A stretch of DNA of 7,457 nt from a virus (lineage: Duplodnaviria; Heunggongvirae; Uroviricota; Caudoviricetes): positions 1 through 7,457 of the IMG/VR virus record IMGVR_UViG_2737471865_000004. One strand, given 5' to 3'. Under the pieces are notes generated by a model, which saw only the letters and a program-made list of their open reading frames with translations, was not told where the DNA came from and did not search any database. The position numbers and the translations under genes are program-made. Each line of letters starts with the position of its first letter. Positions within the stretch are counted from its first letter, which is position 1. Shown one piece after another: positions 1 through 7,457 of this stretch.

Positions 1-93
<93 letters not shown>

Positions 94-196
94 AAACTGG
101 GGATAACGCCTTAAATGGCGAAGAAACGGTCTAAATAGGCTGATTCAAGGCATTTACGGGAGAAAAAATCGGCTCAAACATGAAGAAATGAAATGA

Positions 197-3100
197 CTGA
201 GTCAGCCGAGAAGAATTTCCCCGCTTATTCGCACCTTCCCTAATAATACAACCATTAACGGAGGAAGACAGACAATTCATGACGGGGGCATTTCCACCGG
301 TACGATAATCGACAGTGGCAATCAGGACGTTTATACAGGTGGTATCAGCAATGGAACGACAATTAAGGGTGGTAATTCACACATAAGTGGGGGGACTGCG
401 AATGGAACCATCATTGATGGTGGAGGGCAGACAGTAACAACTCAGGGGCATGTTGATGGTACAACGATAAATAAGTCCGGTTATCAGGACATCACGCAAG
501 GAAGTATTGCAACGAACACAATCATAAATGGTGGACGACAGTATGTTGAACAGAGCACAGTAGGAACAACCACCATTAAAAATGGCGGTGAGCAAAGAGT
601 ATATGAAAGCCATGCGCTGGACACGACGATTGAAGGTGGAACTCAGTCTCTGAATAATAAGTCAACGGCAAAAAATACTCAGATCTATTCTGGTGGTACG
701 CAAATTGTTGATTACACCAGCTCCTCGGATGTTATTGAAGTTTATTCCGGTGGCGTGCTTGATGTTAGTGGTGGTACGGCAACAAATGTTACCCAGCACG
801 ATGGTGCAATTTTAAAAACAAACACTAACGGTACGACGGTGAGCGGTACGAATAGTGAAGGTGCATTCTCCATCCACAATCACGTGGCAGACAATGTGTT
901 GCTGGAAAACGGTGGTCATTTAGACATAAACGCATATGGTTCGGCAAACAAGACGATTATTAAAGATAAAGGAACAATGTCAGTTTTAACGAATGCTAAA
1001 GCTGATGCGACCCGAATAGATAACGGCGGGGTAATGGATGTTACCGGAAACGCGACCAATACCATAATCAATGGTGGTACACAGAATATTAATAATCATG
1101 GTATTGCCACGGGTACCAATATCAACGGCGGAACGCAAAATATCAAGAGCGGCGGGAAAGCTGACACGACAATTATATCCTCCGGGAGCCGGCAGGTTGT
1201 TGAGAAAGATGGTACGGCAACTGGCAGCAATATTAGCGCCGGAGGCTCGCTGATTGTCTATACCGGTGGTATTGCACATGGGGTTAACCAGGAGACGGGC
1301 AGTGCTTTAGTTGCCAACACGGGCGCAGGGACTGATATTGAAGGATACAACAAGCTCTCTCACTTCACTATTACCGGAGGGGAGGCTAATTATGTTGTGC
1401 TGGAAAATACCGGCGAACTGACGGTAGTGGCTAAAACCTCGGCGAAAAATACTACCGTTGATGCTGGCGGTAAGCTGATTGTCCAGAAGGAGGCTAAAAC
1501 AGATACCACCAGACTTAATAATGGTGGCGTTCTGGAGGTTCAGGACGGTGGTGAGGCTAAGCATGTTGAGCAACAATCCGGCGGCGCATTAATTGCTTCC
1601 ACAACTTCCGGAACCCTTATCGAAGGAATCAACAGTTATGGTGATGCTTTCTACATCAGGAATTCAGAAGCTAAAAATGTAGTGCTGGAAAACGCTGGCT
1701 CATTAACAGTCGTCACTGGTTCCCGGGCAGTTGATACGATTATTAATGCCAACGGCAAAATGGATGTTTATGGAAAAGATGTTGGCACTGTACTCAATAG
1801 TGCTGGCACCCAAACAATATATGCCAGTGCCACTTCTGATAAAGCAAATATCAAAGGTGGCAAGCAAACGGTATATGGATTAGCCACTGAGGCAAATATC
1901 GAAAGTGGTGAACAAATTGTTGATGGTGGGTCAACAGAGAAAACACACATCAATGGTGGCACGCAAACCGTTCAGAATTATGGTAAGGCAATCAATACCG
2001 ATATCGTCTCTGGCCTACAACAAATTATGGCAAACGGGACAGCGGAAGGTTCCATTATTAATGGGTGTTCACAGGTAGTTAATGAGGGCGGTCTGGCTGA
2101 AAACTCGGTGCTTAATGACGGCGGCACACTCGATGTGCGGGAGAAAGGCAGCGCAACGGGGATACAGCAGAGTAGCCAGGACGCTTTGGTTGCAACCACC
2201 AGGGCGACGCGGGTCACAGGAACACGCGCGGATGGCGTCGCGTTCAGCATCGAGCAGGGTGCGGCGAACAATATCCTGCTGGCAAATGGCGGCGTGTTAA
2301 CCATGGAGTCAGACACCTCTTCTGACAAAACACAGGTCAATACGGGCGGACGGGAGATCGTCAAAACAAAAGCCACTGCGACAGGCACGACGCTCACCGG
2401 CGGCGAACAAATCGTCGAGGGGGTGGCGAATGAGACAACGATTAACGACGGCGGAATACAAACAGTTTCAGCTAACGGAGAGGCAATAAAAACAAAGATC
2501 AATGAAGGCGGTACGCTGACAGTTAACGATAATGGCAAAGCGACAGATATCGTCCAGAACAGCGGTGCCGCTCTCCAGACGAGCACGGCTAACGGTATTG
2601 AAATCAGCGGTACTCACCAGTACGGCACTTTTTCCATTTCCGGCAATTTAGCGACCAATATGTTGCTGGAAAATGGCGGTAATTTATTGGTATTAGCAGG
2701 TACCGAAGCTCGCGACTCCACGGTTGGCAGCGGTGGAGCCGCCAACGGCAGTTATCGCAGCAACGGGCTGGGCGGTCACATTGAAACCGGGATGCGATTT
2801 ACCGATGGTAACTGGAACCTGACGCCGTATGCATCGTTAACGGGGGTTCACCGCTGATAACCCTGAATATCATTTATCCAATGGCATGGAATCGAAATCA
2901 GTCGATACCCGCAGTTTATATCGTGAACTGGGTGCAACGCTGAGTTACAACATGCGTCTGGGGAACGGTATGGAAGTTGAGCCGTGGCTGAAGGCGGCTG
3001 TGCGCAAAGAATTTGTCGATGATAACCGGGTGAAAGTGAATAGTGACGGTAATTTCGTCAATGATTTGTCGGGCAGACGTGGAATATACCAGGCAGGTAT

Positions 3101-3212
3101 TAAAGCCTCATTCAGCAGTACGTTAAGCGGGCATCTTGGGGTGGGGTATAGCCATGGTGCCGGTGTGGAATCCCCGTGGAACGGGGTAGCTGGTGTGAAC
3201 TGGTCGTTCTGA
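197..3212 (+). pseudogene. ypjA: Type Va (AIDA-I/Ag43-like) autotransporter adhesin remnant, ypjA-like; 5'-truncated and frameshifted
   Basis: One frame is open from 197 (just after an in-frame TGA at 194-196) to TGA at 2855-2857, with no in-frame ATG or signal peptide; the track ORF 755-2857 begins at an internal GTG. Translation is Gly/Thr/Asn-rich with recurring ...T-I-I-N-G-G-T-Q... units typical of AIDA-type passenger repeats. ORF 2886-3212 in another frame ends ...GVNWSF, a typical beta-barrel C-terminus; that frame is open back to 2841, so the frame switch lies at about 2841-2857. Symbol is by synteny only: an autotransporter 3' end ~160 bp from the ssrA-derived att core, as I recall for ypjA next to CP4-57 in E. 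coli K-12. Confidence 0.75.
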
Positions 3213-3221
3213 CCATCAACG

Positions 3222-3245
3222 AAAAAGCCCACATCTGTGGGCTTT
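3222..3245. terminator. Bidirectional intrinsic terminator hairpin (AAAAA-GCCCAC-ATCT-GTGGGC-TTT)
   Basis: Perfect 6-bp GC-rich stem 3227-3232 / 3237-3242 with a 4-nt loop, A5 tract upstream and T3 downstream on the plus strand; on the minus strand the same hairpin is followed by TTTTT. It lies 10 bp after the autotransporter stop and ~130 bp downstream (minus-strand sense) of the ssrA 3' end. Confidence 0.5.
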
Positions 3246-3372
3246 CATGTCACCAGGAGCCGCGGCTCCTTTGCGTATCCTTTTATGTCTCTTCACCGTC
3301 TGGTCGGTGTCCTGCTGAGACTGCTAACTTCCTGTTTTTATTGGTGTTGTCCTTATACCGTCCAATCATGAT

Positions 3373-3417
3373 TGGTGGAGCTGGCGGGAGTTGAACCCGC
3401 GTCCGAAATTCCTACAT
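3373..3417 (-). other. ssrA: 3'-terminal ~45 nt of ssrA (tmRNA) including the CCA end: prophage attachment-site core at the prophage/chromosome junction
   Basis: Minus strand reads ...ATGTAGGAATTTCGGACGCGGGTTCAACTCCCGCCAGCTCCACCA, which matches the 3' end of E. coli tmRNA as I recall it. The match stops at 3417/3418 and nothing upstream resembles the rest of ssrA, so this is a fragment or att core, not a gene. Confidence 0.7.
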
Positions 3418-3533
3418 ACCATTTTGACTATAATAAAAACATATATTTATGTTTTAAAACAGTACGTTAGTGTTATTTTGTTTTTGTCGGTTTTACACAT
3501 TTTTAATGCTCTGCCGCCAAGTTGTCGCCATTG

Positions 3534-4517
3534 CTAATTCCTATCAGCAGGTAGAATTGCTGGGTAGAGCTTAGAGCAATCATTGCCATAGTCAGGGATA
3601 AAGTCCCATAGCCCTTTTGGCGTTTGGAAGACCTCAGGGCTTAAGCCAATCAGCATATAAACATGAACTAACAGCTCGCGCAATCCAGTGACCATTTGCT
3701 TTATTTGTTTTTCATCAGAGAAAGAAGTGGTGAAGGGTTTTTCTTCAATGGAGTCAAAAAGAATAAACTCATGTTTTTCATATCGATAGTCGATCCCTAA
3801 TTCTCTGCAAAGTTGGATAATATTGATTTCGAGCATTTGAAGGGAAATCACTTGGATATCATAAGAAGTCTCTTTGTTGTAACAGCTTTTAATAGCTTTG
3901 TTGATATTCTTATAATAATCTTGAACTCTACCCATAAATAATGAACTTATTTCTTTGCTATAGCCTTCTTCAATAGAGGATTTTGTAAAAATATTCATGT
4001 AAAGAATATAAGGGTGAGAAATGGAAAGTTCTATATATTTTTTTCCATCATCGTGTTCGGTAAACTCTCTACTAACGATAAATGAAGGGACGGTTTTAAA
4101 AATATCGGCATAACTCTTCTGGTGGGCATAAAATGAATCAGATTTATTTTTTGCTTTTACCAGCTCTATTTGATGCTCTGTCCTTGAAAGCTGCGTCTCT
4201 GTTTGAATGGTCCTGTGAATATTCTTAACTATAGCTCCAAGAGGTACTGAACTGGCTAGCAGCATTAGAGGGAATTTACTGATTTCGTAAAAGCGAGTAT
4301 AGCCGTGGGCACTTAACACCGGGACCTTGCCCCACCATGCGAAAATCCCAAAATAAAAGAATGATAATACTGGTATTCCGATTGATAACCAGAATAATTT
4401 CTGTTTTATAAGGTTTTGTTCATTTAATAAATACCACTTGTATTTATATGTTAAATACAATATGTATATTAACATTACAACATAGAACATAATGCCAATT
4501 GATGAATAGAGGGTCAT
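3534..4517 (-). CDS. Hypothetical membrane-anchored protein, 327 aa (two N-terminal hydrophobic helices plus ~265-aa C-terminal domain); AT-rich prophage cargo gene of unknown function
   Basis: Uninterrupted 327-codon ORF. Its ATG (4517-4515) overlaps the int stop codon (ATGA overlap). Hydrophobic segments at roughly residues 7-24 and 41-62. Hand-counted GC of sampled 60-nt stretches is ~23-28% versus ~48% in int. No catalytic motif I can recognise. Confidence 0.7.
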   Translation of the reverse strand: MTLYSSIGIMFYVVMLIYILYLTYKYKWYLLNEQNLIKQKLFWLSIGIPVLSFFYFGIFAWWGKVPVLSAHGYTRFYEISKFPLMLLASSVPLGAIVKNIHRTIQTETQLSRTEHQIELVKAKNKSDSFYAHQKSYADIFKTVPSFIVSREFTEHDDGKKYIELSISHPYILYMNIFTKSSIEEGYSKEISSLFMGRVQDYYKNINKAIKSCYNKETSYDIQVISLQMLEINIIQLCRELGIDYRYEKHEFILFDSIEEKPFTTSFSDEKQIKQMVTGLRELLVHVYMLIGLSPEVFQTPKGLWDFIPDYGNDCSKLYPAILPADRN

Positions 4518-5541
4518 GCTTTTTTCCAGTCTAATTTGTAAAGTGGATTTTTTGTTACAGCATCTTCCAAGTGATCAGGGGCAAAGTGAGCGTAAACCAT
4601 CGTCATTTTTATATCAGCATGGCCCAGAATATCGCGCAGTACCAGTATATTTCCGCCGTTCATCATAAAATGGCTGGCGAATGTATGGCGCAGTACGTGG
4701 GTGCACTGGCCCTCTGGCAGTTCGATACCGGCTCGCTTTACTGCACGCTCAAAGGATTTTCTGCATGGGGTAAATAATCTCCCCCTGTTTTTAGGTAGTT
4801 CGTCATACAGTTCTTGAGATATTGGAACGGTTCGGTTTTTTTTACCTTTGGTCTTGGTATAAGTAATGCGATATTTTGATAACTGATGCCCTTGCAGGTT
4901 TTCTGCTTCACTCCATCGGGCACCAGTTGCTAGGCATATTTTTGCAATCATCAACAGACTGGGACTCTGAGAATCAGCACAGGCATCCAGTAGGCGTTTA
5001 ATTTCTTCCGGGGTCAGGAATGCTAGTTCACCCTCAGCGATTTTAAATGTTGGCAGCCCGACGAGAGGATTTGGTGCTGACCAGTGGCCTAGTTTTTTCA
5101 ATGTGCCGAAAACCGATGATAGGTACGTTGCTCAAGATTCACCGTGCGTGGTTTTACTGGCGACATTAGTGTGCCGTCTTCGTTACGAAGGTCACCTTTT
5201 AACCGTGCTTCGCGGTATTTCGTAAAGTCTCCGGCTGTCAGTTCTGAGGCGATGGGGTCGCCTAGACCATTACAGATAATTCTAAGTTTCGCCATGAGGC
5301 GCTTGGGGTCTGCGAGTGTCTGACCATACAGGGAATACCAAAGCTCAATTAACTCTGATAGGCGTCGCCGATCATCCTTTTCACCCAACCACGGTTTTTT
5401 ATTCACTTCTTCCATTGTGAAGCTTTCAAACGCAATGGCTTCGCCTTTCGTGGCAAATTGCTTACGCACGCGCTTGCCATTGCGTCCATTGGGATAGCAC
5501 TCACACAACCATTTTCCGTTCGGCTGTTTTCTGATGGTCAT
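4514..5541 (-). pseudogene. int: Tyrosine recombinase / integrase of the P2/186 family, split by a frameshift (N-terminal part 5098-5541, C-terminal part 4514-5101)
   Basis: N-terminal ORF begins MTIRKQPNGKWLCECYPNGRNGKRVRKQF... and C-terminal ORF carries ...LATGARWSEAE..., ...HVLRHTFASHFMMNGGNILVLRDILGHADIKMTMVYAHFAP..., which recall the P2 Int catalytic region. The C-terminal frame is open only from 5131 downward after a stop at 5132-5134, and homology resumes there (…ATYLSSVFGTLKKLGHW), so a single indel at about 5123-5135 separates the halves. Combined length ~340 aa. Confidence 0.85.
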
Positions 5542-5542
5542 A

Positions 5543-6175
5543 TCAAAGGCTCTTAATGATTTTCAGTGCGCGGCCTACTACCTCAATGTCATCCAGGCCG
5601 CACTCAAACGATGAATCATCCTGATGCACTACTAATTTGTTTCCCGGGAGTCGAGTCAATTTAACAATGCTTTTTATCCCGTCGATATCGACTAACCACA
5701 TACCATTTACTAGTGGTGTTTGGTTGCGATCTATTAAATAAGAATCACCAGAAGTAGTCACCAGCAGTAGGTTGCTTGAGTTTGAGGGGAGTATGCTGCT
5801 ATCAATGATTGCTTTTCCAGCATCGATCAATAAACCACCGTTGAGAGTCGCCTTGTCAATTTCAGGAGATACTAGTTCAGAAAGAGGTATAACCTTGCTG
5901 GAGTTCACGGAATTGATATTTTTTTTGGGTTCAATGTTTGAACCTGGCTCCCCCTGTCCGGTGGTTAGCCACAGTAAAGAAACTCCTGTTTCCAAGGCGC
6001 ACTGAATCACCCACTCTGCAGGAAAACTATCTCTTAAGTATCTGTTTGCCATGGTACTTTTTGATGCGCCTAAGTGATCGCAAAGTTGCTGTCTGGACTT
6101 GAAATCATAGGCTGCCATTAGTCTATGGATAGCCTCTCTTCCCCCTGTATTCTCTCCAGCCTTTACCTGTATCAT
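5543..6175 (-). CDS. cI: CI-type lysogeny repressor (N-terminal HTH domain); occupies the 186 cI / P2 C position immediately upstream of int
   Basis: 210-codon ORF whose stop lies 1 nt before the int start, implying a cI-int operon. N-terminal region (...SRQQLCDHLGASKSTMANRYLRD...) looks like an HTH. AGGA sits about 6 nt upstream of the first ATG; an internal Met 19 codons in would give 191 aa. Confidence 0.65.
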   Translation of the reverse strand: MIQVKAGENTGGREAIHRLMAAYDFKSRQQLCDHLGASKSTMANRYLRDSFPAEWVIQCALETGVSLLWLTTGQGEPGSNIEPKKNINSVNSSKVIPLSELVSPEIDKATLNGGLLIDAGKAIIDSSILPSNSSNLLLVTTSGDSYLIDRNQTPLVNGMWLVDIDGIKSIVKLTRLPGNKLVVHQDDSSFECGLDDIEVVGRALKIIKSL

Positions 6176-6192
6176 TTTTTAATCCTGTTGGC

Positions 6193-6239
6193 GTATCAAA
6201 TATTGGATCGTAGTATCTCGATGTATCAAATATTGAATC
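6193..6239. promoter_or_regulatory. Two direct copies of a 17-bp operator-like element (GTATCAAATATTGGATC / GTATCAAATATTGAATC) in the repressor-Cox/Apl intergenic switch region
   Basis: Copies at 6193-6209 and 6223-6239 are 16/17 identical with starts 30 bp apart; each contains the palindromic core AATATT, and a third GTATC half-site sits at 6213-6217. They lie between divergent regulatory genes where operators are expected. Promoter -35/-10 elements could not be assigned with confidence. Confidence 0.35.
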
Positions 6240-6294
6240 AAGTAAAACGAGATAAAACGACGTAAACCAAACCTTAATCGGGAGATACTGCACT

Positions 6295-6537
6295 ATGAGC
6301 ACTGATATTTCAATTCGTGTACCAAAAGAGATGGCTACGCCTGCAGAGTTCGCGGAATGGGAAGGTATCTCCCGCGGCTCCGTGTATCAAAAAATTCACC
6401 ATGGTCAGCTTGCTAAATACATGGTCAAGAAAGAAAAAAACAAAGGCCGCGTAAGCCTGCGTTATTTAATGTACAAAACCGATCAGGTCCGTGAATCCCT
6501 CGGTCATTCCAACTTCCGCGTCATTGTTGGTAAGTAA
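6295..6537 (+). CDS. Small HTH regulator, Cox/Apl-like (excisionase / lytic-switch protein), 80 aa
   Basis: First rightward gene of the switch, in the same position as 186 apl / P2 cox. The segment ...TPAEFAEWEGISRGSVYQKIHHGQL... resembles the HTH region of P2 Cox as I recall it. Confidence 0.5.
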   Translation: MSTDISIRVPKEMATPAEFAEWEGISRGSVYQKIHHGQLAKYMVKKEKNKGRVSLRYLMYKTDQVRESLGHSNFRVIVGK

Positions 6538-6569
6538 GTTCAATTATGAGAACTTTCTAAGGGGGTAGC

Positions 6570-7079
6570 ATGTTTGATTATAAGATTTCCAAACACCCGC
6601 ATTTTGATGAAGCCTGTAGAGCTTTTGCACTTCGTCACAATATGGCGAAGCTGGCAGAACGTGCAGGAATGAATGTCCAGACTTTGCGAAACAAACTCAA
6701 CCCAGATCAACCGCATCAGCTAAATGCGCCAGAAATCTGGCTGCTTACCGATCTGACTGAAGATTCAACGCTGATAGATGGTTTTCTGGCACAGATTCAC
6801 TGCCTGCCATGTGTACCGATTAATGAGGTAGCAAAAGAGAAACTGCCGCATTACGTCATGAGTGCAACCGCAGAGATCGGGCGTGTTGCTGCAGGTGCGG
6901 TATCTGGAGATGTAAAAACCAGTGCAGGTCGTCGTGATGCTATCAGCAGCATTAACTCTGTAACACGACTGATGGCGCTGGCTGCTGTTTCATTGCAGGC
7001 CCGTTTACAGGCTAACCCTGCGATGGTGAGTGCAGTTGATACCGTGACTGGCCTCGGTGCTTCATTCGGTTTGCTGTGA
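6570..7079 (+). CDS. cII: CII-like lysogeny-establishment transcriptional activator (phage 186 CII family), 169 aa
   Basis: Strong RBS AAGGGGG about 4 nt before the ATG. Same position (second rightward gene) and same length as 186 CII as I recall; N-terminal HTH-like segment ...NMAKLAERAGMNVQTLRNKLNP... Confidence 0.65.
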   Translation: MFDYKISKHPHFDEACRAFALRHNMAKLAERAGMNVQTLRNKLNPDQPHQLNAPEIWLLTDLTEDSTLIDGFLAQIHCLPCVPINEVAKEKLPHYVMSATAEIGRVAAGAVSGDVKTSAGRRDAISSINSVTRLMALAAVSLQARLQANPAMVSAVDTVTGLGASFGLL

Positions 7080-7086
7080 GGTGCTT

Positions 7087-7383
7087 ATGCTGAAGAAAGA
7101 ACCATCATTTGCATCGCTGCTGGTAAAACAAAGCCCGGCAATGCACTACGGTCACGGCTGGATCATGGGTGAGGATGGGAAACGCTGGCATCCATGTCAT
7201 TCACAAGATGAATTGCTGTCTGAATTGACCACGAGGAAACGGAGAAAGTCAAAATGTATGCAGCGGAAAGTGAAGTGGTTTATCAGTTTCGTTACAGAGG
7301 GGAGAGTTATTCAGTACCTGAAGATGATTTGCTCTGTTGTTATCCGTCGTTGTCGGGCGATGGCAGTTACTTTTTCACGCTAA
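7087..7383 (+). CDS. Hypothetical phage early protein (position of 186 fil/dhr-type genes); start assigned to the ATG at 7087 rather than the track start at 7057
   Basis: GAGG lies 5 nt upstream of the ATG at 7087. The C-terminal third of the translation is unusually Cys/Arg-rich, so the true extent is uncertain (see findings). Confidence 0.3.
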   Translation: MLKKEPSFASLLVKQSPAMHYGHGWIMGEDGKRWHPCHSQDELLSELTTRKRRKSKCMQRKVKWFISFVTEGRVIQYLKMICSVVIRRCRAMAVTFSR

Positions 7384-7457
7384 GGAAGGTGCGAACAAGT
7401 CCCTGATATGAGATCATGTTTGTCATCTGGAGCCATGGAACAGGGTTCATCATGAGT

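Follow-up and report, generated by a model that had tools for sequence, protein, structure and literature searches.

Evidence for an ssrA-derived attR core at the chromosomal end of a Fels-2/SopEPhi-type prophage in Escherichia coli

ssrA, the gene for tmRNA, is described as an integration hotspot in PMC3603311, and PMC3448106, citing Pelludat 2003, places the phages SopEPhi and Fels-2 in this gene. The same article assigns phage 186 to another target, tRNA-Ile (ileY/ileX). The Fels-2/SopEPhi group combines the type of regulatory switch known from 186 with a different integration specificity. A further element at ssrA is CP4-57, whose attR scar is without T357 and whose excision damages tmRNA (PMC10107115). 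Integration of Fels-2 and SopEPhi into ssrA has been in print since 2003, and the locus described below holds nothing new in principle; its use lies mainly in annotation.

We analysed a stretch of 7,457 nucleotides (positions 1 to 7,457 of IMG/VR record IMGVR_UViG_2737471865_000004; hereafter the window) and are highly confident that positions 3372-3417 form the core of attR for a P2-like (Peduoviridae) prophage of the Fels-2/SopEPhi type, inserted in the 3' end of E. coli ssrA. This fixes the right boundary of the Fels-2-type prophage at window position 3372.

The ssrA 3' end and the chromosome beside it

An earlier note on this DNA had claimed that about 45 nt identical to the 3' end of tmRNA, CCA included, lie here on the minus strand, and the match turned out to be exact: the 45-mer ATGTAGGAATTTCGGACGCGGGTTCAACTCCCGCCAGCTCCACCA at 3373-3417 (minus strand) agrees with the last 45 nt of E. 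coli ssrA, CCA included, at 45 of 45 positions, with 0 mismatches. It is also the 3' end of annotated ssrA in K-12 MG1655 (L003 1912-1956) and in SCU-106 (L002 9171-9215). As a test of chance, the window was shuffled 200 times with dinucleotides preserved, and no shuffle (0/200) held a match to the 45-mer even with up to 3 mismatches tolerated. A comparison of the two prophage ends in SCU-106 gave an exact repeat, common to attR and to the prophage's ssrA end, of 46 nt (3372-3417) rather than 45, because the A that follows CCA is also common to both ends. The attR core at 3372-3417 (minus strand) is made up, then, of the displaced last 45 nt of ssrA and one A, forming a 46-nt direct repeat, and is wild type in that T357 is present.

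As an alternative to a recombination junction, the block could belong to a tmRNA gene that has decayed or been duplicated. The Rfam tmRNA model (RF00023) does return a full-length-style match at 3373-3548 with E = 1.3e-10. However, the overall score is 33.3 bits, under the gathering score of 47, posterior probability is high over the last ~48 nt only and 288 positions of the model are replaced by 103 unrelated nucleotides. The part that aligns (3373-3420) corresponds to the 3' strand of helix P2, the T-arm, the 3' strand of the acceptor and ACCA; the score is low because everything upstream of the ssrA 3' end is unrelated, and that upstream sequence is a phage attP arm. ARAGORN, for its part, found 0 tmRNA or tRNA genes in the 7,457-nt window. 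Given the sub-threshold Rfam score and the ARAGORN blank, we regard the block as a fragment and not as a gene, and a decayed or duplicated tmRNA gene as an extremely improbable source for it. Rfam also gave a match to permuted tmRNA (E = 0.35; 21 bits, against 47), which comes from this same 3' piece and was set aside. The earlier note had reasoned that a 45-mer failing to match ssrA, or an intact ssrA next to it, would speak against a junction; the 45-mer does align to ssrA, and neither ARAGORN nor Rfam detects an intact tmRNA gene in the window. A search for a second att copy, which the note had proposed, found none in the window, even of the last 18 nt of ssrA.

The principal claim of the note, that an ssrA-derived att core marks the junction between prophage and chromosome, could be followed through with attB, attP, attL and attR all lined up, and it held. 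In a six-way alignment of the window attR, three free-phage attP sites, the SCU-106 attL and K-12 ssrA, the arms swap around an invariant core: (i) the window attR reads chromosomal flank, core and phage right arm; (ii) the SCU-106 attL reads phage left arm, core and body of ssrA; and (iii) attP in Cartapus, SEN8 and MLG42 reads left arm, core and right arm, the 45-mer being internal, between the ogr side and the int side. Empty attB sites are present in Res13-Lact-PEB01-20 and C9 (L018 and L019), where intact ssrA is joined directly to the sequence that starts at 3371 and runs leftward. The annotated 47-nt attP core in the Fels-2 RefSeq record, NC_010463, contains the 45-mer of the window.

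SCU-106 is the best relative of the window, with 99.9% identity over positions 378-7385 (5 substitutions and 1 indel). The order there is smpB, intact ssrA, a ~32-kb P2-type prophage, the 46-nt repeat and a ypjA remnant; the prophage is single and its genes run ogr, tail, lysis, capsid, terminase, portal and gpA, then fil, cII, apl, cI, int and an ORF of 327 aa. The P2-type structural and replication genes and the ssrA-restoring attL are seen in this relative and belong to DNA beyond the window itself; attL is known from relatives only, the far end of the prophage and the intact ssrA both lying past the window's edge.

We read the arrangement as the outcome of integration. The last ~46 nt of ssrA are duplicated in attP, with Int arm-type sites on either side, and the tyrosine integrase recombines this phage copy with the identical end of chromosomal ssrA. 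The copy then completes the gene and is followed by a terminator hairpin, also brought in by the phage, to give attL ~32 kb to the right and beyond the window, and the original chromosomal 3' end is left as a non-functional 46-nt orphan between the int-side arm and the DNA toward ypjA, giving attR. That the phage supplies an ssrA end, that the gene is completed by it with a phage hairpin and T-run behind, and that the original end is displaced to attR is observed. The position of the crossover and the role of the arm sites we infer from phage 186: because the geometry of the window is that of the annotated 186 attP, the analogy predicts a crossover in the end of the block that faces int, at about 3411-3417. 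The argument rests on the annotation of the 186 record, which gives a 46-nt tRNA 3' fragment with its CCA end distal to int and a crossover predicted in the int-proximal 7 nt.

We also observed a GC-rich hairpin with a T-run, AAGGGGTTACGTGAAAGCGTAGCCCCTTTTT, in the phage left arm (SCU-106 attL, L002 9108-9170; Cartapus, L004 2460-2500). This hairpin comes to lie directly 3' of the reconstituted ssrA, where it presumably replaces the native terminator. A hairpin and T-run can likewise be read from the sequence at ~3226-3250, within the native chromosomal flank of the window.

That flank (3213-3371, the B' side of attB) is intergenic and lies directly downstream of ssrA in unoccupied genomes. 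It is identical to the sequence joined to intact ssrA in Res13-Lact-PEB01-20, a strain that also has the same broken ypjA. The flank next to the att core (TCATGATTGGACGG...) is furthermore the sequence that follows the end of CP4-57 in K-12, where CP4-57 lies between ssrA and ypjA with the same flank beyond it. The earlier note had placed CP4-57 at ssrA in K-12 with ypjA just past its end, and MG1655 is annotated in just this way.

The K-12 arrangement bears on a second alternative, namely that a P4-like island resembling CP4-57 once sat here and left the 45-mer as its scar, the phage genes having been inserted by other means. K-12 does have an ssrA-derived scar at the same chromosomal position, beside the same flank. 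Yet this scar, annotated psaA, is a degenerate remnant of ~17 nt (CTCCGCCAGCCCACCA), whereas the block in the window is 46 nt long and perfect; the DNA directly to the right of the block is collinear with the arm of attP in free phages of the Fels-2 type; and Pfam and PHROG searches of the window found no CP4-57 sequence and no P4-type integrase (Arm-DNA-bind_3, Phage_int_M, Phage_integrase). We give an island scar hardly any credence and continue with the block as the attR core of the Fels-2/SopEPhi-type prophage.

To the left of the flank lies a decayed ypjA (ehaD) autotransporter adhesin gene (240-3212, plus strand) with AIDA repeats at 755-2857 and the end of an Autotransporter beta-domain (beta-barrel) at 2886-3212 (Pfam). 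Its 5' side is cut by IS5 and its reading is broken at 2857/2886. The gene is annotated as a pseudogene in relatives, one of which has an empty ssrA site, and the 'decayed chromosomal gene' that the earlier note had placed beside the att core can now be named as ypjA. The break leaves a separate 108-aa beta-barrel ORF (WP_000444409.1), and the same break is found in Res13-Lact-PEB01-20 (L018 197-523). As the ssrA site of that strain is empty, the decay of ypjA is independent of the prophage. Both ypjA and the 160-nt spacer are chromosomal.

Positions 1-239 of the window we take to be the end of IS5, recognised by the terminal inverted repeat GGAAGGTGCGAATAAG, which ends at 239. IS5 is inserted in ypjA, with its CTAA target at 240-243. 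The IS5 junction (1-239) was matched in no complete E. coli genome of our collection and is in this sense private to the window, with the result that no complete genome in the collection spans the whole of 1-7457. Relatives carry IS3 instead, at other positions in ypjA.

Phage genes to the right of the core

Rightward of the core lies the P' (int-side) arm of attP (3418-3533), which is AT-rich and non-coding and aligns with the right arms of attP in Cartapus, SEN8 and MLG42. It holds two direct copies of CGCCA (3515-3519 and 3526-3530), 11 nt apart and ~100 nt from the core. In number, spacing and distance from the core they equal the Int arm sites (YAYCGCCAYTY) annotated in phage 186, and by analogy with 186 they are candidate arm-type Int sites. 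The left arm of Cartapus has two direct arm-type sites and one inverted, as in 186. A scan of the window's P' arm with the IHF consensus gave no match, and we claim no IHF site.

Beyond the arm and a cargo ORF (3534-4517), the window carries a Fels-2-type tyrosine integrase gene (4514-5541, minus strand; Pfam, PHROG) with Int_N and Phage_integrase domains but a frameshift, and then a lysis-lysogeny module of the 186 type, identified with Pfam and PHROG. The module comprises a CI immunity repressor of the 186/Fels-2 type (5543-6175, minus strand; PF07022 and PF16452, Phage_CI_C), the Cox-like excisionase and repressor Apl (6295-6537, plus strand; phrog_6912, phrog_575), the lysogeny-establishment activator CII (6570-7079, plus strand; PF06892, Phage_CP76) and a cell division inhibitor of the 186 Fil type (7087-7383, plus strand; PF10893, Phage_186_Fil, phrog_32377). 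The statement of the earlier note that int reads toward the att core was right as to orientation; int is not the ORF adjacent to the core, however, as the cargo ORF of 327 aa intervenes.

With regard to the identity of the phage, the intact SCU-106 allele of Int is 92% identical to that of Fels-2, 92% to SEN8, 93% to Cartapus, 93% to MLG42 and 55% to 186. For Apl the corresponding values are 100% (over 79 aa), 98%, 100%, 68% and 30%; for CII, 92%, 92%, 95%, 90% and 70%; and for CI, 58%, 90%, 51%, 86% and 33%. Given these identities of Int and the switch proteins, and the use of tRNA-Ile by 186, the element is placed by sequence comparison in the Fels-2/SopEPhi group (Felsduovirus/Elveevirus, Peduoviridae). 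The '186-like phage' of the earlier note is apt for the switch, which is of the 186 type, but does not extend to 186 in the strict sense, which is ruled out for the window by an att site in ssrA and not in tRNA-Ile (ileY/ileX) and by the 55% identity of Int. The immunity type probably differs from that of Fels-2, because CI is only 58% identical to Fels-2 CI and 90% identical to SEN8 CI.

Relative to the intact 342-aa gene of SCU-106, int lacks 1 nt near 5124 (GATAGG-TACG), and this deletion splits it into ORFs at 5098-5541 (Int_N domain) and 4514-5101 (catalytic domain). Among the complete E. coli genomes with this int segment, the extra base was present in 34/34 and the deletion in 0/34. An exact-protein look-up nevertheless found the identical 147-aa truncated Int product encoded in two independent read-set assemblies. 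The contigs concerned (4.0 kb and 1.3 kb) both end inside the att core; one of them is 100% identical to window 3388-7405 and the other 99.84%, with 2 other differences. Since this allele recurs in both of these independent read sets, and one of them shows 2 other differences, we consider the frameshift a real allele and reject sequencing error as its cause. With the catalytic domain out of frame, self-excision has probably been lost and the prophage locked in place, and given the frameshifted int the element may have ceased to function as a phage.

The cargo ORF (3534-4517, minus strand) encodes 327 aa, is assigned to phrog_17460 ('unknown function') and has a start that overlaps the stop of int by 4 nt. 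Two to three N-terminal hydrophobic helices of the protein can be read as membrane-spanning, and a motif, NIHRTIQTE, is invariant. The ORF had no Pfam or PADLOC match, its homologs are all 'hypothetical' and occur in Enterobacterales, and an AF2 model of the protein (pLDDT 85) had no informative structural neighbours. What lies between attP and int varies among relatives: an anti-phage dCTP deaminase occupies this slot in L007, GapS1 does so in L008 and WEC, and Cartapus has a RES-domain protein there, while SEN8 and MLG42 leave it empty. Because relatives keep dCTP deaminase, GapS1 and RES in this slot, we list the 327-aa ORF as a candidate phage-exclusion gene; a smaller possibility is that its product, a membrane protein whose gene is transcribed with int, represents a novel exclusion factor against phages.

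A second region of the same prophage type, between dinI and portal, varies as well, with HIRAN, DUF4145, DUF6953, a 469-aa ORF or a reverse transcriptase (L001 32221-33872; L010-L016 about 560-2160). Its variability matches the published P2 gpA-portal defence hotspot.

Occupancy of the ssrA site

The frequency of the junction was estimated with a probe of 211 nt (window 3290-3500) at a coverage cut-off of 80% or more in 5426 complete E. coli genomes. The junction was found in 96 of them (~2%), and empty sites, in which the flank is joined directly to ssrA, made up 18 of 40 rows in an even sampling of the probe ranking, three of these having been checked. The junction is uncommon but routine, and is known biology.

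The chromosomal side of the window is clean, in that the native flank is directly attached and no island lies between phage and chromosome. The prophage may still be one of a tandem array and not hold the site alone, another integrative element standing before the functional ssrA. There is precedent for this among relatives. In FREC5, which is 99.4% identical to window 240-7386, a lambdoid prophage (yfdPQR, with its own integrase) lies between ssrA and the Fels-2-like phage, and all that stands of the ssrA 3' end at their junction (L024, about 8262) is a piece of 26 nt. In WEC (L021) and in L010, L014 and L015, the same type of phage, bearing the same cargo gene, has islands with a P4-type integrase downstream of its attR. 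On the other hand, a single prophage abuts ssrA directly in SCU-106 (99.9%), and the side visible in the window has the native flank attached and lacks a second att copy. We consider a tandem array in the present strain possible but on the unlikely side; it is compatible with 3372-3417 being an attR core and not opposed to it.

Displaced ssrA ends of another kind were observed in relatives. A displaced end without T357 (CCAGC-CCACCA) lies beside the native flank in at least 18 complete E. coli genomes (for example L008 3679, L009 7441 and L011 11098), and among these genomes are carriers of Fels-2-like prophages that differ in their cargo genes. Excision of CP4-57 reportedly puts the same lesion into tmRNA (PMC10107115). 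A functional ssrA without T357 at the native flank was found, within the collection, only in the laboratory strain DTU-1. It is a tentative idea, and one that concerns these relatives, that displaced ssrA ends bear witness to a succession of elements at ssrA and also enforce it; we think it rather doubtful. If it were true, lysogeny by a Fels-2-type phage would restore a working tmRNA gene in lineages without T357, and loss of the prophage would expose the tmRNA defect again, making the prophage hard to lose.

Comparison with known elements

The earlier note had proposed that the same chromosomal neighbourhood as in K-12 here holds a different phage family, and the occupant is indeed of the P2 family, with a switch of the 186 type. 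CP4-57, in contrast, is a P4-like island with a P4-type IntA, and its att takes in no more than the final ~17-26 nt of ssrA, the T-loop region, as against 46 nt here. The two element families use different stretches of ssrA, 46 nt and about 17-26 nt, and because each has a stretch of its own, replacement or stacking of families at ssrA is possible.

Phage 186 (Eganvirus) has the same CI, Apl, CII and Fil architecture as the window, and its attP is designed alike, with ~46 nt from the 3' end of an RNA gene and CCA distal to int. Both arms of the 186 attP bear CGCCA sites of the arm type, and a small ORF (orf69) separates attP from int.

For Cartapus and MLG42 (Elveevirus) and SEN8 (Felsduovirus), the sequences are those of excised phage or virions, and their right arm aligns with 3418-3533. 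Cartapus, too, has a cargo gene between attP and int, with a RES domain; the cargo in the free phages is different or absent.

The Salmonella phage Fels-2 (Felsduovirus) has an identical att core and the same order of att, int, cI, apl, cII and fil. The window differs from it in its host, which is E. coli, in its flank, which is ypjA, in the extra 327-aa gene between att and int and in the frameshift of int.
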